Shown here: piece by piece, positions 12,342 to 37,001 of the stretch
Layout: each line of letters begins with the position of its first letter
Position numbering within the stretch: the stretch's first letter is position 1
NCBI GenBank assembly: GCA_021791415.1
Contig: JAJYWQ010000044.1
Span: forward strand, 12,401-76,400
DNA from: a bacterium
GTDB taxonomy: Bacteria > Chloroflexota > Dormibacteria > Aeolococcales > Bog-877
DNA length: 64,000 nt
Direction: 5' to 3'
Notes under the pieces: generated by a model
Seen by the model: the letters and a program-made list of their open reading frames with translations, nothing else
Database searches by the model: none
What the model was told of the DNA's origin: nothing
Translations under genes and position numbers: made by a program

Positions 12342-12764
12342 TCAGTCGCGCTCCGCTTCGGACCCCGCGCTGCGCCGGCTCCGCTGCGCCGTGCGCACCG
12401 TCTTGGTGACGGGCTTGGCCTTGCCTGCCGCAGTCTTCCGCTGCGAGGCGGTGGACTTGGACCTCGTGCCCTGCGCCGCGCCGCGCCGCGCGCCGCCCGC
12501 AGTCTGAACGGCGGTGGCCGCGGCCAGGGCACGCATCAGCCGCGACTTGCGCCGGGCCACATTGCGCGGGTGGAGCACCCCGTGCTCGGCCGCCTTGTCC
12601 AGCGCCGAGGTGGCGAGACGACCGAGCTCCGGCGCCTCCTCCCCGCCCACGGCGCGGCGAGCCTTGGCCACCGCTGTGCGCACCGCGGAGCGCACGGAGC
12701 GATTCCGATCGTGCTTGCGCTCGGCGGCGCGGACCCGCTTGCGAGCTGAACTGGTGTTGGCCAA
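12342..12764 (-). CDS. rpsT: 30S ribosomal protein S20 with a basic C-terminal extension
   Basis: MANTSSARKRVRAAERKHDRNRSVRSAVRT. TTG start. Confidence 0.85.
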   Translation of the reverse strand: MANTSSARKRVRAAERKHDRNRSVRSAVRTAVAKARRAVGGEEAPELGRLATSALDKAAEHGVLHPRNVARRKSRLMRALAAATAVQTAGGARRGAAQGTRSKSTASQRKTAAGKAKPVTKTVRTAQRSRRSAGSEAERD

Positions 12765-26761: not shown

Positions 26762-29386
26762 CTAGCTCCTCCGGCCAGGAGCTCCGGGCACCTGAGGCGG
26801 CTGCCAGGGGCGCCCCAGCTCGTCCACCAGAAGGGCGATCAGAGCCGACCACCCGGTCTGGTGCGAAGCCCCCTGGCCGCTGCCGTCCTCGGCGTGGAAG
26901 TACTCGTGGAAGAGCAGGCAATCCCGCCAGGTGGGATCGTCCTGGAACTTGGAGTACCCGCCAAAGACGGGACGGCGCCCGTCCGCGCCGCGGCGCAGGA
27001 TGGAGACCGTGCGCCCCGCCAGCCGGTCGGCCACCTCAGTCAGGTTCAGGGCAGGGCCACCCGGGGCGGGGAACTCGTGGGTGAAGCCGGCGCCCAGGCC
27101 GACCCCCAGGAGGCGCAGCGCCTGGATCAGCAGGTATCCCGTGGGCAGCCAGATCGGTCCCCGCCAGTTGGAGTTGCCACCCATGATCCGCTCCTCCGCC
27201 GGCCCAGGCTCGTAGCGGACAGCAGGCATATCGGGGACCAGTTGGGACTGGAAGGGCTCGCGCAGGTGAGCCTTGGACAGGGACCGCAGCCCGAAGTCCG
27301 AGAGGAACTCCGAGGGGCTCAGGAGCCGGTCCAGGAGGCGGTGGAGCCTCTCCGGGCCGAGCAGGGAGAGGACCGCGTAGGGATCGTCCCCGGCCGCCCG
27401 GTAATGGAAGGCGCGCTGCTCCTGGTGGGCAGTCAGCTGGCGCTCCAGCCGAGGCAGGCGGTCTAGGGTGTGCTGGTGCACAACCTCGGTGGCCGCCAGC
27501 GGCAGCAGGCCCACCAGGCTGCGAACTCGTAGCACCTCGCTGCGGCCGTCGGCCAGCCTGAGCCGGTCGTAGTAGAAGCCTTCGGTCTCGTCCCAGAGCC
27601 CGGGCTGGCCGTCGTCGCCGTTGAGCGCCTGGGCGATGTGGGCGAAATGGTTGAAGAAGCGGATGGCCATGTCTTCGTACTGCGGCTCCTCCACTGCCAG
27701 CTCGGCGGCGATCCGGAACATCTTCACCGCGAACATCCCCACCCAGGCGGTGGCGTCCGCTTCCCAAATCTCCGCCCCAGAAGGGAGGTGGCTACGGTCC
27801 ACCGCGGAGATGTTGTCCAGGCCAAGAAACCCGCCGGCGAAGATGTCGTGGGCGCTGACATCCCGACGGTTCACCCACCAGCCGTAGTTGAACAAAAGGG
27901 CCAGGAACGCCCGCTCCAAGAACCCCCGGTCGGGCCGGCCGGTGCGGTTGCGCTCGCGGACGTAGATCTGCCACACCGCGGCGGCGTGCACCGGCGGGTT
28001 GGAGTCGGAGAAGCTCCACTCGTAGGCGGGAAGCTGTCCATCCTCCCGCGTGTAGTCGGGCCGCAGCAGCAGCATCACCTGGCGCTTGGCCAGCTCGGGA
28101 TCGAATGGCTGCAGCGCCAGAGCATGGAAGGCCAGATCCCAGGAGGCGAACCAGGGGTACTCCCAGCTGTCCGGCATGACGACCACGTCCGCCGCCCGCA
28201 AGCCCCGCCAACCGGAGTTCCGGCCCTCGAGGCGTGAAGCTGGGGGCGGAGGCTGGGCAGGGTCTCCGTCCAGCCACCGGCCCACGTCGTACTCGTAGTA
28301 CTGCTGGGTCCATATCAGCCCGGCCAGCCCCTGTCGGAGGATCAGCCGGTCGTCGTCGTCGCAGCCCTGGGGGGCAGCGCGGAGGTGATAGGCGGTGGCC
28401 GCAGCCCGCCGGCGCTCGCACACTCCGTCGACCATCGTGGACGAGAGCCCCTCCAGGTCTCCCCAGACCCAGCGCACCACCCGGCTCTCCCCTGCTCCCA
28501 GCTCGAGGACGAACTGGGCGGCGGCCCGGGTCCCCACCATGGCGGGATTGCACAGGCTGGGCTCCTGACGCACCACCGCATCCCCTATGGCCCCCTTGGG
28601 GTACAGCGTGGTGGCCGGAGCCCCGAAGAGCTGGGCCACGTCGGTCTCGTTGTCGCAGAAGAGGAAGGTTGCGCCGGGGTCGACGGCCAGCCGATAGCCC
28701 GGGAAGTCGGGGTGATCGAGGGTGACAACGCCGCCCCGCAGGGCTAGCTTCGGCGGGGGCGTCCCGGACCATGACCAGGTGTTGCGCAGCCACACCTGGG
28801 AGAGCAGGTGGAGCCGCGCCGGCGCCGAGCTGCGGTTGCTGACGGTCACCCGGCAGCAGACCACGGTGGGTGAGTCCTGGGCGTACTCGACCTGCACGTC
28901 GAAGTAGCGGCCATCCTCGAAGAAGCCCAGGTCCAGGAGCTTCAGCTCCGGACCGGGCTGCCGATTGCGTACCCGGAGCTCTTGATAGGGGAAGGCCGCC
29001 ATCGGGTAGCGGTAGACAGCGGCGAGGTAGCTGGAGTCCGGCAGGGCGTCCAGGTAGTGCCAGTACTCCTTGACGTCCTCACCGTGGTTGCCCTCGGCGT
29101 TGGTGAGGCCGAAAAGCCTCTCCTTGAGGATCTCGTCTACCCCGTTCCACAGACCCAGCCCCAGGCACACCGTCTGCCGGCGATCGGAGATGCCCAGCAG
29201 CCCGTCCTCCCCCCATCGGTACGCCCTAAGGCGGCTGTGCTCGAAGGGGAAGTAGGCCCAGGCGTCCCCATCCTCGCTGTAGTCCTCCCGGACCGTGCCC
29301 CACTGGCGGAGGGAGAGGTAGGGTCCCCAGGGCCTCCCGGGATCCTCCGGCGATGCGTCTTGGTGCGGGGGGAGGTCGGGGGGCAC
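26762..29386 (-). CDS. GH63-family glycoside hydrolase (glucosylglycerate/mannosylglycerate hydrolase-like)
   Basis: WGPYLSLRQWGTVREDYS...YRWGEDG N-terminus and VVVMPDSWEYPWFASWDLAFH catalytic-domain motif. Confidence 0.75.
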   Translation of the reverse strand: MPPDLPPHQDASPEDPGRPWGPYLSLRQWGTVREDYSEDGDAWAYFPFEHSRLRAYRWGEDGLLGISDRRQTVCLGLGLWNGVDEILKERLFGLTNAEGNHGEDVKEYWHYLDALPDSSYLAAVYRYPMAAFPYQELRVRNRQPGPELKLLDLGFFEDGRYFDVQVEYAQDSPTVVCCRVTVSNRSSAPARLHLLSQVWLRNTWSWSGTPPPKLALRGGVVTLDHPDFPGYRLAVDPGATFLFCDNETDVAQLFGAPATTLYPKGAIGDAVVRQEPSLCNPAMVGTRAAAQFVLELGAGESRVVRWVWGDLEGLSSTMVDGVCERRRAAATAYHLRAAPQGCDDDDRLILRQGLAGLIWTQQYYEYDVGRWLDGDPAQPPPPASRLEGRNSGWRGLRAADVVVMPDSWEYPWFASWDLAFHALALQPFDPELAKRQVMLLLRPDYTREDGQLPAYEWSFSDSNPPVHAAAVWQIYVRERNRTGRPDRGFLERAFLALLFNYGWWVNRRDVSAHDIFAGGFLGLDNISAVDRSHLPSGAEIWEADATAWVGMFAVKMFRIAAELAVEEPQYEDMAIRFFNHFAHIAQALNGDDGQPGLWDETEGFYYDRLRLADGRSEVLRVRSLVGLLPLAATEVVHQHTLDRLPRLERQLTAHQEQRAFHYRAAGDDPYAVLSLLGPERLHRLLDRLLSPSEFLSDFGLRSLSKAHLREPFQSQLVPDMPAVRYEPGPAEERIMGGNSNWRGPIWLPTGYLLIQALRLLGVGLGAGFTHEFPAPGGPALNLTEVADRLAGRTVSILRRGADGRRPVFGGYSKFQDDPTWRDCLLFHEYFHAEDGSGQGASHQTGWSALIALLVDELGRPWQPPQVPGAPGRRS

Positions 29387-32059: not shown

Positions 32060-33040
32060 TCAGCGTCCAGCCTGGCCAGCCAGGGGTACGAGCTCCTCAC
32101 CCTGGGAGGGCCAGCCGCCGCAGTGGACGACCCGACCATCCGCGGACACCAGCCGGGCCGCGGCGCGAAACCTGGCCAGGAGAGCCTCAGCGAGCTCACC
32201 TCCGACCAGGGCTGCGGTGGACAGGGCATTGGCCCGCAGGCAGCTGTCGGCGACCACGGTGGCCGTCTGCCAGCGACCTCGGGCCGGACGCCCCGTGCGG
32301 GGATCGATCAGATGGTGCATGGACATCCCCTGACGGAGCCAGCGCCGGACTGCGGTCGAGGAGGTCGCCAGGCCGCGGGCGAAAAGGCTGACCGTCTGCC
32401 CCGGCTCGTCCTCGCCCCCCAGATGGTCGTCGGCGATCCGGACCGTCCAGCCACCGGCAGGCACCGGGCCCGAGGTGGCGATATCCCCTCCCAGGCTCAC
32501 CAGGCAGGCGGCTCCCGCGGCCGCCCCGGCCAGCGTGGCGGCGCGATCTGCGGCCCAGGCCTTGGCCGTCGCACCAAGGTCCAGCAGCAGGCCGGGGGGG
32601 CGAGTGAGGACCTGACCCTCGAGCTGTACCCGGTGCCAACCGGGAGCCGGCCCTGAGGGAGCGACAGGTGCGCTGGCGCGCTCCTGGAGCTGGGAGAAGT
32701 CGCGGTCGTACCCTGCTGCCAGGAGCGCGGCGCCGACGGTGGGGTCGAAAAGACCGCCGGTCTCTCGCGACCAGTGGAGGGCATCGGCCAGCAAGCCAGC
32801 CAGCTCGCGGCTAACAAAGATCCTGAACCGGGGATCCGAGTTGACCCGGGAGAGTTCGGAGCCCGGCTTGAACCGGCTGGCCAGGTCGTCGACCCGGGCG
32901 ATCACCCGGTCGGCCTCCGTCAACGCCGGAGCCAGCTGGTGCCCGCCGGCCACCAGGACCCGTGCCGTGGTGCCGAGCGCGGGCCGCCACGCACCGGCGA
33001 CACCGGGGATGTTGGCCAGGCGGGCCCAACCCCCGTCCAC
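32060..33040 (-). CDS. apbE: FAD:protein FMN transferase (ApbE)
   Basis: LDLGATAKAWAAD and SLGGDIA...HHLIDPRTGRP motifs. Start overlaps the upstream small ORF stop (TGAGTG). Confidence 0.75.
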   Translation of the reverse strand: MDGGWARLANIPGVAGAWRPALGTTARVLVAGGHQLAPALTEADRVIARVDDLASRFKPGSELSRVNSDPRFRIFVSRELAGLLADALHWSRETGGLFDPTVGAALLAAGYDRDFSQLQERASAPVAPSGPAPGWHRVQLEGQVLTRPPGLLLDLGATAKAWAADRAATLAGAAAGAACLVSLGGDIATSGPVPAGGWTVRIADDHLGGEDEPGQTVSLFARGLATSSTAVRRWLRQGMSMHHLIDPRTGRPARGRWQTATVVADSCLRANALSTAALVGGELAEALLARFRAAARLVSADGRVVHCGGWPSQGEELVPLAGQAGR

Positions 33041-33343
33041 TCAGGACCCGCCGGAGGTGACCACCGGCGGGGCGGTCGCCGGAGCAGGGGCGACGCCGCC
33101 ACCGGAGGTCGCTCCCCCACTTGGAGAGCCGGATGTCGCCCCTCCAGCGGAGGAGCCGGACGCCGGCGTGGAAGCCGCAGGACTGGTCACGTGGGCGCTC
33201 CGGCCCGGGATGGCGTTGGCCACGGCAGCCGCCACCGCCCCTGTCCCGGCCATGGCCGCCAGGGTGAGCCACACGGTGGCCCGCCTCACCCTGGCTTCGC
33301 CCCGGCTCCGCTCTTGCTGGCTGAAGCGAGGTGTGTATGCCAT
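33041..33343 (-). CDS. Small membrane-anchored Ser/Gly/Thr/Ala/Pro-rich protein (100 aa) with tandem SGGATSG motifs
   Basis: N-terminal anchor VWLTLAAMAGTGAVAAAVANA, then ...GSSAGGATSGSPSGGATSGGG.... High GC3. Coupled to apbE. Confidence 0.4.
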   Translation of the reverse strand: MAYTPRFSQQERSRGEARVRRATVWLTLAAMAGTGAVAAAVANAIPGRSAHVTSPAASTPASGSSAGGATSGSPSGGATSGGGVAPAPATAPPVVTSGGS

Positions 33344-33365
33344 GGGGCGATGGTGCCATTAGAAG

Positions 33366-33440
33366 CTGGGATTCGATCCCAGAGAACGCTGGGAGTATCC
33401 TGGGCCGAGTTAACGCAAGCCAGTTGCGCAACCGGCTTGC
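33366..33440. promoter_or_regulatory. Two palindromes in the divergent promoter between the ApbE operon and the Fur-family gene (±2 bp)
   Basis: CTGGGATtcgATCCCAG (about 33366-33382) and GCAAGCC-AGTTGCGCAACC-GGCTTGC (about 33415-33440, contains the 10 bp palindrome GTTGCGCAAC). Candidate -35 TTGCGC, 17 bp, then TATGAT. Confidence 0.35.
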
Positions 33441-33443
33441 TTT

Positions 33444-33884
33444 ATGTATGATGTGGCCATGGGCAGAAGGCCGAAGATCGCGGGAGCGGTTCAGGAACTT
33501 ATGGCGGCGCGGGGCCGGCACACCTGGACGCTGGAGGAACTCCGGCAGGCTCTGGCCGCCAAGGGAATCCGCGCCGACTTCTCTTCGGTGTTCCGGGCCA
33601 CCGCGCGACTGGAGACCGAAGGAGCGCTCCGCCGGGTGGAGTTGGACGATGGCCGCACTCATGTCGAGATCCAGGACGAGCACCATGACCACTTCCGGTG
33701 CGAGCTGTGCGGCGAGGTCCTGGCAGTCCCCTGCGAAGCTTCGGGGGCGGCCATGCGAGCCCTGGAGGACGCCACCGGCCTCAAGATTCATGACCATCAC
33801 CTGGTCCTGACCGGTATCTGCCAGGCCTGTCGGGGTGGGCCTTCGGTGCAGATGGTGCCGAGCGCGGCGGGTGCGGCATCGTGA
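33444..33884 (+). CDS. Fur-family metalloregulator (Zur/Nur/Fur-like)
   Basis: HTWTLEELRQAL...HHDHFRCELCGEVLAV...C...C. Possible leaderless start at the second ATG (about 33459). Confidence 0.75.
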   Translation: MYDVAMGRRPKIAGAVQELMAARGRHTWTLEELRQALAAKGIRADFSSVFRATARLETEGALRRVELDDGRTHVEIQDEHHDHFRCELCGEVLAVPCEASGAAMRALEDATGLKIHDHHLVLTGICQACRGGPSVQMVPSAAGAAS

Positions 33885-34839: not shown

Positions 34840-36306
34840 TCACCCAGCGGGGCTGACCGGCAACCCGACCGCCCGGTCCACCTGGTCGGCGGCCGGCTCC
34901 TGCGTCAGCGGGCGTTGGACGGGGATGCGCACCTCGAAGGTCGCCCCCCCTCCCTCGGTCGGCCGGTACTGCACGGTGCCCTGGTGGGCGGTGACGATGG
35001 CGCTCACAATCGAAAGGCCGAGTCCCGTGCCCCCGGTCGCCCTCCCCCTGGACCGATCGCCTCGATAGAAGCGCTCGAAGATGCGCGCCGCCAACTCGTC
35101 AGGAATCCCCGGGCCGTGGTCAATCACCTGCACCACTCCCTGGTCTCCGACCAGCCGGGCGTCGATCTCCACCGCGGTTCCCTCCGGGGTGTGGACCACG
35201 GCGTTGCGCACCAAGTTGGTGACCACCTGCCGGAGCCGCGCCTCGTCCCCCTGGACGATCACCGGCGACCCCGCGTGAACGCGAATCCGGTGGCGGCGGT
35301 CGGCGGCTGACTGGTCAGCCGCCGCGTCCACCGCCAGCTCGGCCAGGTCGACCGGCTTGCGGTCCAGGGGCCGACCCCGATCCAGGCGGGCGAGAAGGAG
35401 CAGGTCATCCACCAGAAGGCCCATCCGCGTGGCTTCGCTTTCGATCCGGCTCATCGCCTTGTCCAGGTCATCGGGGTTGGAGCGAGCCCCGCGCCGGAAC
35501 AGCTCGGCGTAGCCTCGAATCGAGCTGAGGGGAGTGCGCAGCTCGTGGGACGCATCCGCGGCGAACTGCCGTAGACGCGCTTCGGATGCCTGGCGCTCGG
35601 CGAAGGCGCTCTCGATCTGGGCCAGCATCTCGTTGAGGCTGATGGCCAGCTGGCCGATCTCAGTCCGTTCGTCCACCCCCTGGACCCGTTGACTGAGATC
35701 GCCCCCGGCGATCTTTCGCGCCGTGTCCCGGATTTGCCGCAGCGGGCGGAGGCCGAGGTCCACCAGCCACCAAGCCGCCAGGCCCAGGGCCACCAGGACC
35801 ACTGCCCCCACGAGTATCTCAAGGGTCTGGAGCTGGCTCAAGGTCGCCTCCACCGACGTGAGGGGCATGGCCACCACGAAGGGCTCGGCCGGCCCGCCGG
35901 CAACCTGGACGCCGACCAGCAGGCCACGGAACGTGACCCCGTCACGGTTGCCCGCCGCCGTGAAGAAGTAGGGGGACGGAGGAATGTTGCCCGCGGTGAC
36001 CGAGGCCGGCAGGACCGGCCGCGGGGTGGTCTGAGCCGAGCCCCAGACCACCCCCTCCTGGCTCCCCCCGGGTCCAATGAAGGCGGCGTAGCTGCCCTCC
36101 GGGAGAGCGGTGCTGGTGGGGCAGTCGTTGTGGGTTACCTGGGAGATCACGCAGGCTCTGGCCGAGTCCACGGACTGCAGGAGTGCCTGCTCCAGCCGAT
36201 TCCAGAGGGACGACTGGAGCGCCAGATAGGTGACAGCGTCGGTGGCGACCAAGCCCGCCGCCACCAGGGCGATCAGGGCCAGCAGGAGCCGTAGGCGGAG
36301 GGTCAT
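34840..36306 (-). CDS. Sensor histidine kinase (HAMP, HisKA, HATPase), OmpR-partner type
   Basis: Two TM flanking a periplasmic domain. ADASHELRTPLSSIRGYAELF H-box. N, G1, G2 boxes. Confidence 0.8.
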   Translation of the reverse strand: MTLRLRLLLALIALVAAGLVATDAVTYLALQSSLWNRLEQALLQSVDSARACVISQVTHNDCPTSTALPEGSYAAFIGPGGSQEGVVWGSAQTTPRPVLPASVTAGNIPPSPYFFTAAGNRDGVTFRGLLVGVQVAGGPAEPFVVAMPLTSVEATLSQLQTLEILVGAVVLVALGLAAWWLVDLGLRPLRQIRDTARKIAGGDLSQRVQGVDERTEIGQLAISLNEMLAQIESAFAERQASEARLRQFAADASHELRTPLSSIRGYAELFRRGARSNPDDLDKAMSRIESEATRMGLLVDDLLLLARLDRGRPLDRKPVDLAELAVDAAADQSAADRRHRIRVHAGSPVIVQGDEARLRQVVTNLVRNAVVHTPEGTAVEIDARLVGDQGVVQVIDHGPGIPDELAARIFERFYRGDRSRGRATGGTGLGLSIVSAIVTAHQGTVQYRPTEGGGATFEVRIPVQRPLTQEPAADQVDRAVGLPVSPAG

Positions 36307-36308
36307 GG

Positions 36309-37001
36309 TCAGCCCCGGGGCAGTCGCAGAACGTACCCCATGCCCCTCACGGTGTGGATGAGCGGCGGATCGAAGGCGTCCACCTTCTTGCGCAGGTAGC
36401 TGATGTAGGTCTCCAGGATCCCGGCGTCGCCGCCGAAGTCATAACTCCACACGTGGTCGAGGATCTGGGCCCTTGTCAGCACGCGGCGGGCGTTGATCAG
36501 CAGGTAGCGGAGGAGCCGATACTCGGTGGCCGTGAGCTCGATCGGGTGCTCGCCCCGGCGCACCTCGCGCAGGTCCTCGTCCATCTCCAAGTCCGCGAAG
36601 GTGAGGATGTTGCGGCTCTCTTGGCGGTGCCCGCTGCGTCTGAGGATGACCCTAACACGGGCGATCAGCTCGTCAAGGCTGAAGGGCTTGGTGACGTAGT
36701 CGTCCCCCCCTACCGTGAGCCCGCGGACCTTGTCCTCCGTCGCGTCCTTGGCGGTCAGGAAGAGGATCGGCACGTCTATCCCGGTCGCCGCCACAGTCCG
36801 GGCCACCTCGAAGCCGTCCTGATCCGGGAGCATGACGTCCAGGATCACCAGGTGGGGCTTGAACTGACGGACCTTTTCCAGGGCCTCTCTGGCGCTCCGC
36901 GCCGTCTCGGTGTCGAAGTCGGCGTAGCGGAGCGCGGTGGAGACCAGTTCGACCAGGTTGAGCTCGTCGTCCACCACCAGCACCCGAGTGCGCTCACCCA
37001 C
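36309..37001 (-). CDS. OmpR-family response regulator
   Basis: RVLVVDDELNLVELV...ILDVMLPDQDG receiver. Winged-helix C-terminus (HTVRGMGYVL). ATGA overlap with the kinase. Confidence 0.85.
   Translation of the reverse strand: MGERTRVLVVDDELNLVELVSTALRYADFDTETARSAREALEKVRQFKPHLVILDVMLPDQDGFEVARTVAATGIDVPILFLTAKDATEDKVRGLTVGGDDYVTKPFSLDELIARVRVILRRSGHRQESRNILTFADLEMDEDLREVRRGEHPIELTATEYRLLRYLLINARRVLTRAQILDHVWSYDFGGDAGILETYISYLRKKVDAFDPPLIHTVRGMGYVLRLPRG

Follow-up and report, generated by a model that had tools for sequence, protein, structure and literature searches.

We analysed a stretch of 64,000 nucleotides (nt) of Dormibacterial DNA (hereafter the window: positions 12,401 to 76,400 of contig JAJYWQ010000044.1 in assembly GCA_021791415.1, numbered with 1-based coordinates) that contains, on its reverse strand, an operon of five genes headed by a small, unnamed open reading frame (ORF). 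Downstream of this ORF lie apbE, which encodes a transferase that attaches flavin mononucleotide (FMN) to proteins from flavin adenine dinucleotide (FAD), and the genes for an MsrQ-like/ferric-reductase-type membrane protein, a NuoF-like protein with predicted sites for NADH (reduced nicotinamide adenine dinucleotide), FMN and a 4Fe-4S cluster, and a single-cluster ferredoxin (Table 1). An earlier note, made from the sequence alone, had described the product of the small ORF as an unannotatable anchored protein of 100 amino acids (aa) with a tail rich in S, G, T, A and P, and had suggested that it could be a minimal substrate of ApbE. The ORF, its single hydrophobic segment (residues 24-44) and the composition of its tail are as described; the relatives of the window, whose loci carry L-numbers in what follows, allow the suggestion about its function to be weighed.

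The small protein opens with a basic segment (six Arg in residues 6-21) whose conserved part keeps R12, G15 and T23 invariant in the family alignments. The hydrophobic segment that follows reaches a Kyte-Doolittle maximum of ~1.8-2.0, and the tail beyond it terminates in ...APPVVTSGGS; across the family this tail is 27-124 aa long and contains S (19%), A (17%), P (14%), T (11%) and G (11%). From a 22-sequence alignment, AlphaFold2 predicts one helix over residues 6-44, with a block-mean predicted local distance difference test (pLDDT) score of 79-86 over residues 11-40, and coil after residue 44 (pLDDT ~50-67), without a flavin-binding fold. In the family, the hydrophobic segment is flanked by 4.6-5.2 Lys plus Arg on its N-terminal side versus 0.9-1.3 on its C-terminal side, a charge bias that predicts an N-in, C-out topology with the tail on the outer face of the membrane. 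In agreement with the label "unannotatable", Pfam and NCBIfam gave zero matches for the window protein and five relatives, for Pfam even at E<=1, and neither Pfam nor the predicted helix-plus-coil structure indicates an FMN_bind domain (PF04205) in the small protein. At the DNA level, Rfam returned zero matches at E<=1 over 32800-33600, and scans of 32900-33600 for sigma-70 promoters and intrinsic terminators found none. In 36 of 65 family members (among them L013, L020, L027, L032 and L087) the tail contains a loosely recurring proline-rich element (L-Q-P-P-A-Q-A-P or V-P-A-Q-P-P-A-P; A-P-A-P in Dormibacteria), 10-90 residues upstream of the C-terminus, which may serve as a second docking element; we rejected L-Q-P-P-x-Q-A-P/A-P-A-P as a second defining motif of the tail because of this restricted occurrence.

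Table 1. Position of the operon, of the parts of the small protein and of the flanking features in the window.
Feature	Coordinates	Strand	Evidence and remarks
Small ORF, 100 aa plus TGA stop (operon gene 1)	33041..33343	-	ATG at 33343, TGA at 33043..33041; conserved, unnamed, membrane-anchored
Basic N-terminal motif R12-T23, RSRGEARVRRAT	33275..33310	-	Predicted cytoplasmic; family consensus R-D-x-G-L-R-R-x-R-R-x-T
Hydrophobic helix V24-A44 (21 residues)	33212..33274	-	Membrane anchor or uncleaved/cleavable signal sequence; ends A-N-A, then I-P-G-R
Low-complexity disordered tail I45-P93	33065..33211	-	S/G/T/A/P almost throughout; AlphaFold2 coil
C-terminal heptapeptide V-V-T-S-G-G-S-COOH	33044..33064	-	Conserved; candidate ApbE flavinylation tag; Ser100 is the predicted FMN attachment site
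TGA/GTG junction	33038..33043	-	Stop abuts apbE start in the same frame; termination-reinitiation coupling
apbE, FAD:protein FMN transferase, 326 aa	32060..33040	-	PF02424 E=1e-53, residues 23-290; no signal peptide or lipobox
MsrQ-like/ferric-reductase-type membrane protein, 370 aa	30945..32057	-	PF01794 E=5.8e-5 (23.6 bits, below the 28-bit cut-off)
C-terminal domain of the MsrQ-like protein, ~160 aa	30945-31430	-	No family match; absent in L006 (231 aa)
NuoF-like NADH/FMN/4Fe-4S protein, 432 aa	29650..30948	-	PF01512, PF10531, PF10589; 4-nt overlap with preceding gene
Single-cluster ferredoxin, 84 aa	29399..29653	-	PF13459 Fer4_15 E=1.7e-9; position conserved in relatives
Divergent intergenic region	33344-33443		Highly conserved among Dormibacterial relatives
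Near-perfect 26-bp palindrome, GCAAGCCAGTTGCGCAACCGGCTTGC	33415..33440	.	In the divergent intergenic region, directly upstream of the Fur gene
Fur-family regulator	33444..33884	+	PF01475 E=8e-14; divergent; neighbour also in L001-L004
Multi-pass membrane protein, 311 aa	33881-34816	+	4-nt overlap with the Fur stop; beside Fur in L001, L003
HisKA/HATPase sensor kinase and OmpR-type response regulator	34840-37001	-	Syntenic in L001, L003
GH63/MGH1-like glycoside hydrolase	26762-29386	-	On the operon's other side; syntenic in L001, L003

Scanning of reference genomes with the ApbE alignment retrieved 80 loci, distributed among Dormibacterota and Actinomycetota (Streptosporangiales, Solirubrobacterales, Acidimicrobiales, Gaiellales, Micromonosporaceae, Pseudonocardiaceae, Streptomyces, Prescottella and Microbacteriaceae). 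The ApbE homologues down to 64% identity were all called at exactly 326 aa, and the DNA upstream of them contains an orthologous small ORF. The earlier note had proposed to look for small ORFs upstream of apbE in relatives and held that a lack of conservation would speak against its idea; orthologues do occur in this position, in L001-L010 and in most of L011-L087. Among 73 loci where apbE is followed by MsrQ-like and NuoF-like genes, 62 carry, upstream of apbE, an ORF that encodes a hydrophobic segment and ends in [ST]-G-[GA]-[ST]-stop. The endings counted were SGGS (47), SGAS (9), TGGS (5), TGAS (2), SGGT (1) and SGAT (1), against a background of 0.8% of the ORFs of >=45 aa in the same loci that end in the motif, a figure that includes the family itself; other loci show the near-variants SGDS, SAGS, TSGS and SAAS. 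L012, L016 and L017, which have this type of ApbE without the MsrQ-like and NuoF-like genes, have no small ORF either. L007, L028 and L046 (upstream of apbE) and the protein P0322 share an N-terminal ...RRMSNW[ST]xAAL and have other C-terminal ends (IATGSGDS, ...HPAAYHDN, ...VKPYHDN and ...AVWHDN); this sub-group perhaps represents a branch that has diverged at its C-terminus.

As an independent test, a profile restricted to the first 48 residues (motif, hydrophobic segment and P-G-[RKH]) was run against 5.8 billion proteins and returned 88 proteins of 52-84 aa, all unnamed or annotated as 'hypothetical'. Seventy-nine of them end in SGAS and the remaining nine look truncated or frameshifted. 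Two matches could be placed on contigs (L088 and L089), where the small ORF is followed by apbE (with a 4-nt overlap) and by genes for Ferric_reduct, NuoF-like and Fer4_15 proteins. When 1.84 billion cluster representatives were searched exhaustively with a profile (E<=1e-3), 129 clusters were recovered, in which the N-terminal motif occurs together with the helix and the C-terminal motif; 91 of the 127 that we inspected end in the strict motif (SGGS 41, SGAS 39, SGGT 5, TGAS 5 and SGAT 1). Longer, domain-bearing relatives were rejected, the few long matches being frameshifted read-ins to apbE and not domain fusions. Over its full length the window protein can be aligned with the SGAS subfamily; R12, G15, T23, S97, G98 and S100 are invariant. 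The small ORF is thus almost certainly a genuine, conserved and as yet unnamed component of the operon. Our literature search returned only general surveys and no prior description of this small-protein family, which would have escaped earlier surveys because they picked clusters by Pfam domains and predicted signal peptides. Cultured carriers include Kutzneria buriramensis DSM 45791, Paractinoplanes deccanensis NBRC 13994, Prescottella defluvii and strains of Streptomyces and Actinoplanes. The operon, with a Dormibacteria-like small ORF, is also present in L086 (DATLRQ010000005.1), a contig labelled 'Candidatus Micrarchaeaceae archaeon' that is probably mis-binned.

The opinion of the earlier note that the ORF is not spurious is borne out by its conservation across two phyla and by purifying selection. 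Pairwise comparison of five Dormibacterial orthologues gave ratios of nonsynonymous to synonymous substitution rates (dN/dS) of 0.22-0.39 for the small ORF versus 0.20-0.28 for apbE. The linker between the helix and the C-terminus evolves fastest (dN 0.19-0.56), and the last 17 codons show, per pair, 5-11 synonymous and 0-3 nonsynonymous differences. The sequence GGAGG occurs in no more than 19 of 66 loci, all four Gly codons being used at both Gly positions; Ala (GCN) takes the second of these positions in 12 of the 66, which destroys the run of G; the residue before the Gly pair is encoded by TCN, ACN or AGC; and the terminal Ser/Thr is retained whether or not the apbE start overlaps the stop. 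Given this free variation of the Gly and Ser codons and the pattern of dS and dN, the constraint acts on the peptide, and the C-terminal motif is under protein-level selection. The codon usage and the dS/dN of the last 17 codons argue against an origin of SGGS as a Shine-Dalgarno sequence only. The more general suspicion that the ORF is spurious, and that its conservation reflects nucleotide signals that serve apbE expression (a Shine-Dalgarno sequence of the form GGNGG, or a leader) in GC-rich DNA, draws on the location of the Gly-Gly codons at the expected ribosome-binding site of apbE and on a codon-preference score that fails to separate the frames (0.18 versus 0.20 in the other frame). 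Because of this failure codon usage proves little, so that the appeal of the earlier note to genome-typical codon usage is weak evidence, although the third-position GC content of 0.79 does agree with that of the neighbours (0.78-0.90). However, the scarcity of GGAGG, the replacement of the second GGN by GCN, the many synonymous changes around fixed amino acids, the joint occurrence of the N-terminal motif, helix and C-terminal motif in 129 clusters, and the lack of an Rfam family match all speak against this explanation, which the codon, dS/dN and family-search results have already refuted and to which we give next to no chance.

The earlier note had read the hexamer TGAGTG as an overlap of the stop with the start of apbE; the hexamer is indeed there, but the stop (33043..33041) and the GTG (33040..33038) are adjacent and in frame, without overlap. 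The same arrangement occurs in L001, L003 and L008. A single in-frame TGA between an 'anchor plus linker' and an ApbE domain that lies 22 codons further on and is devoid of a signal of its own first led us to suspect an interrupted or read-through ApbE fusion, in which the small ORF would be the detached N-terminal signal-anchor of ApbE, split off by a nonsense mutation or sequencing error, or else joined to it by UGA read-through to give an outward-facing anchored enzyme. The relatives exclude this as a general explanation, since the relative frame of the two genes varies by lineage: among 66 loci, the junctions comprise 37 RTGA overlaps (-1), 5 at +3 (including the window) and 9 at +4, with the rest mostly within ~10 nt, and examples of other arrangements are TGA-G-GTG, out of frame, in L004, a GTGA overlap in L005 and a TGATG overlap in L007. 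In L086 the order is small ORF, MsrQ-like, NuoF-like, ferredoxin and apbE, so the small gene sits beside the MsrQ-like gene and three genes away from apbE. In addition, the stop is conserved across two phyla, strong protein-level selection on the C-terminal motif extends right to it, and the long 'fusions' in databases are frameshifted gene calls. TGA is also the stop codon of 10 of the 11 neighbouring genes, and as an ordinary stop it gives no hint of recoding. The small ORF and apbE are two genes, usually coupled by termination-reinitiation, and the detached-anchor idea, largely refuted as a general mechanism, appears very improbable. In the lineage of the window, where the arrangement is lineage-specific (5 of 66 loci), low-level UGA read-through would give a membrane-anchored ApbE of ~427 aa.

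We compared the conserved C-terminus with the ApbE consensus D-x-x-[S/T]-G-A-[S/T]. The family has a Ser or Thr at the acceptor position, the last of the motif (S100 in the window; the 62 of 73 loci that carry the strict motif, and also most of the variants), and this terminal residue is almost never lost. The [S/T] at -3 and the Gly at -2 from the acceptor are S97 and G98, invariant in the alignment and in 66 loci. Ala at -1 is found in 12 of 66 loci, in all 79 motif-bearing word-index matches and in 45 of the 91 motif-bearing clusters; about half of the family carries the literal canonical [S/T]GA[S/T]. For ApbE, a tag of 7 residues is enough and performs best when placed at the end of a protein, a D-to-A change in the motif has only a minor effect, Ser is accepted, and cytosolic ApbEs exist (PMC12052999). 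The earlier note had sought the site in the interior of the tail, where it counted PSGGATSG twice. Only GGATSG is repeated (residues 67-72 and 76-81; 33101-33145), in the contexts SAGGATSG and PSGGATSG, and these internal repeats are variable in close relatives (GGNASG, GGGASG, GGGAAS, GGSASG and GGGTSG) and do not correspond to [S/T]GA[S/T]. The idea of a minimal anchored ApbE substrate peptide nevertheless holds as the best-supported reading once its site is moved to the C-terminus (VVTSGGS; SGAS in about half of the family).

Other candidates for flavinylation are missing from the surroundings. D..[ST]GA[ST] is absent from every ORF of >=80 aa in the window, a six-frame scan of the window for D..[ST]GA[ST] or [ST]GA[ST][ILVM][ST] found none, and the looser [ST]G[AG][ST] occurs across the five operon proteins at residues 97-100 of the small protein only. 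By Pfam scan, the operon contains no gene for an FMN_bind, DUF2271 or DUF3570 substrate. Since the operon has no other ApbE-type site and no FMN_bind gene, the simplest interpretation makes the small protein the substrate of its ApbE.

The remaining operon proteins are consistent with a flavin-dependent electron-transfer module. ApbE aligns across its domain to the structures 1vrm, 4xdt and 6nxi and conserves the blocks DLGATAK, SLGGD, ATS and HHLIDPxTG, which supports its family assignment. A lipoprotein or secretion signal is typical of the ApbE family without being a defining trait; an N-terminal signal or anchor is absent in all 28 aligned members of this ApbE clade, which have <=30 non-hydrophobic residues before the domain. 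In the MsrQ-like protein we counted six hydrophobic segments by eye, and the PF01794 matches of its homologues in L007, L088 and L089 are unmarked. Its histidines H54, H68, H130 and H143 are conserved in 81-82 of 82 homologues with spacings of 14 and 13, and we take the H54/H68, H130/H143 arrangement to be the bis-haem signature of the ferric-reductase/NOX superfamily. The L007 protein joins the MsrQ-like part directly to a NuoF-like part (635 aa in total), which stands in place of the ~160-aa C-terminal domain; this fusion indicates that the C-terminus of the MsrQ-like protein is cytoplasmic, and the ~160-aa domain is probably a cytoplasmic docking domain. The NuoF-like protein matches TIGR01959 (E=4.5e-55), below the equivalog cut-off. 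Together with the ferredoxin, these proteins are predicted to provide a complete inside-to-outside electron path.

We lean slightly towards the view that the small protein is flavinylated on its terminal Ser and would be the flavin carrier of this module. Its architecture is that of an Arg-rich, predicted cytoplasmic motif, one membrane helix, a disordered tail of varying length and an invariant end [V/A]-[V/T]-[S/T]-G-[G/A]-[S/T]-COOH, and the co-translated, signal-less ApbE would transfer FMN from FAD to the hydroxyl of the terminal Ser. Electrons would then pass from NADH to the FMN and 4Fe-4S cluster of the NuoF-like protein, then through the ferredoxin and the haem pair of the MsrQ-like protein, and finally to the tethered FMN, which, on its flexible leash, could take them from the outer haem. 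The final acceptor may be a metal ion, since a metal-responsive repressor always adjoins the operon; the divergent position of this repressor, of the Fur or the CsoR/RcnR type, likewise hints at metal reduction as the physiological output. Within this scheme we infer the flavinylation, the topology, the crossing of the membrane by a tail modified in the cytoplasm, and the terminal acceptor.

Several observations weigh against this scheme. The acceptor of the window protein is preceded by Gly (G99, in SGGS) instead of Ala, and the Asp at -6 is replaced by V94 (by Q or G in the SGAS subfamily); because of these two departures we do not file the small protein as an established ApbE substrate. In a model substrate, A-to-V and G-to-A changes cut flavinylation to ~50% (PMC12052999), and we found no report on the effect of A-to-G in the ApbE literature searched. 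About 10 of the 73 loci have variant or different endings (SGDS, SAGS, TSGS, YHDN, or a TSGGTS-THVP extension), and a flavin on a disordered tail would have no obvious binding pocket. Moreover, the lack of an export signal should place ApbE in the cytoplasm, and with a tail facing outwards this means that the tail would be modified before translocation, for which we know of no precedent; otherwise, either the predicted topology or the substrate assignment is wrong. Twin-arginine translocation, whether by a signal of the small protein itself or by hitch-hiking, seems improbable as a family-wide solution because the RR (V-R-R-A-T-V-W in the window) is not conserved: it is present in 47 of 62 loci and in 31 of 79 database matches, many of the latter having R-K...S-R. 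More speculatively, a site at the very last residue and translational coupling to apbE would suit modification before export.

The same difficulties lend some weight to a purely structural role, in which the helix of the small protein would pack on the MsrQ-like protein and/or tether ApbE and the NuoF-like protein, the C-terminus being a docking peptide or a pseudo-substrate, or having an unrelated role. Such a subunit for structure or assembly would explain why the Arg-rich motif and the helix are conserved beyond the needs of a simple anchor and why the gene keeps company with the MsrQ-like gene in the rearranged operon of L086, and would fit both the departures of the motif from the canonical site (Gly for Ala, no Asp) and the predicted location of ApbE and the tail on opposite sides of the membrane. 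It would, however, leave the ApbE of the operon without any substrate, and it does not account for a terminal Ser/Thr that is almost never lost or for the literal [S/T]GA[S/T] at the terminus of about half of the family, which is the arrangement that ApbE modifies best; we therefore regard it as rather unlikely. The hydrophobic segment might also be cleaved off as a signal peptide (A-x-A, then PG[RK]), releasing a secreted, soluble, S/T/P-rich peptide, perhaps a diffusible flavopeptide shuttle or a product unrelated to flavin. Many members do have A-N-A, A-H-A or S-Q-A before the conserved PG[RKH], and the RR of the window and of 47 of 62 loci points in the same direction, but AlphaFold2 predicts a single long uninterrupted helix and many members lack A-x-A or RR, which makes cleavage improbable. 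In its flavin-bearing form this possibility overlaps with the anchored flavin carrier that we favour, from which it differs only in the anchoring of the product, flavinylation being common to both.

Known ApbE substrates with an FMN_bind domain (PF04205) include NqrC, RnfG, PplA, NosR and PceC. Like them, the small protein is membrane-anchored or secreted, is encoded beside apbE and has its candidate Ser/Thr acceptor in a motif of the [S/T]-G-A-[S/T] type; unlike them, it has neither an FMN_bind fold nor any other after the helix, carries the motif at its extreme C-terminus, lacks Asp at -6, and has Gly for Ala in about half of its family, including the window. Clusters of MsrQ-like genes and apbE, including a variant with a NuoF-like gene, are a recognised flavinylation-associated system, mostly actinobacterial, which have been suggested to transfer electrons across the membrane at the expense of NAD(P)H (reduced nicotinamide adenine dinucleotide, or its phosphate) or to reduce metals (Meheust et al. 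2021, eLife, PMC8238504). The operon of the window likewise combines apbE with genes for a bis-haem membrane protein (PF01794) and a NuoF-like protein (PF10589), but it differs from those clusters in that it has no FMN_bind gene, its ApbE is signal-less and a domain-less small protein takes the place of the substrate. Natural flavinylation by ApbE of an unstructured C-terminal extension has been described in FMN_red proteins (Huang et al. 2024, mSystems, PMC11334425). There, as in our candidate, the site lies on a disordered C-terminal extension outside a dedicated domain; in FMN_red, however, the tail folds back on the protein's own flavin-binding domain, whereas the small protein has no such domain in cis, so its pocket would have to come from a partner such as the MsrQ-like protein. 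The engineered Flavin-tag (Tong et al. 2021, reviewed in PMC12052999) is similarly a short terminal peptide that ends in the acceptor Ser/Thr, but it is synthetic and keeps D-x-x-[S/T]-G-A-[S/T], in contrast to the natural tail with V or Q at -6 and often G at -1. Finally, Klebsiella pneumoniae has a cytosolic ApbE without a signal peptide that matures fumarate reductase inside the cell (PMC12052999). The ApbE of the window resembles it in lacking a signal peptide, although the K. pneumoniae substrate is a soluble cytoplasmic FMN_bind enzyme and our candidate an anchored tail predicted to face outwards. Judging from the sequences, the operon resembles an ApbE-dependent MsrQ-like cluster for extracytosolic electron transfer, from which it would differ by a domain-less substrate, a site at the C-terminal residue and a signal-less ApbE.

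Flavinylation by ApbE underlies one of the main ways in which bacteria move electrons out of the cell. To our knowledge, accepted ApbE substrates all hold their flavin in or beside a folded flavin-binding domain, so a family of at least 129 clusters in which a disordered tail offers only its final residue as a candidate site would widen the substrate range of ApbE and, if confirmed, would be a natural counterpart of the engineered Flavin-tag. It also raises the mechanistic question of how a signal-less ApbE can serve a tail predicted to face outwards. In its most far-reaching form, the small protein would be the first natural ApbE substrate without a domain, flavinylated in the cytoplasm, threaded across the membrane and used on the outer face to take electrons from an NADH-driven bis-haem conduit, in a system that would be widespread among Actinomycetota and Dormibacterota; we consider this proposal possible but somewhat less probable than not. 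It offers a testable function for an unnamed gene of many soil Actinomycetota and uncultured Dormibacterota, and the presence of the operon in cultured hosts makes experiments feasible.

The divergent intergenic region contains a palindrome whose core is invariant across the window, L001, L003, L004 and L008 and which is a candidate operator for the adjacent Fur-family regulator. The leader of the small ORF has a conserved TCCCAG...CTGGGA inverted repeat. In the Streptosporangiaceae-type loci L088 (4304-4585) and L089 (4500-4781), a CsoR/RcnR-type repressor (PF02583) is found in place of Fur. A YbjN-like gene is located near the operon in these two loci; one also directly precedes a lone apbE in L016, L017 and L039, where the small ORF and the MsrQ-like and NuoF-like genes are absent. 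The 311-aa membrane protein encoded next to Fur has no Pfam or NCBIfam match, and an H-x5-D-E-H stretch (HGITPDEH) in it suggests a metal transporter. Beyond it follow the genes of the sensor kinase and response regulator, and the opposite flank of the operon is occupied by the glycoside hydrolase gene.

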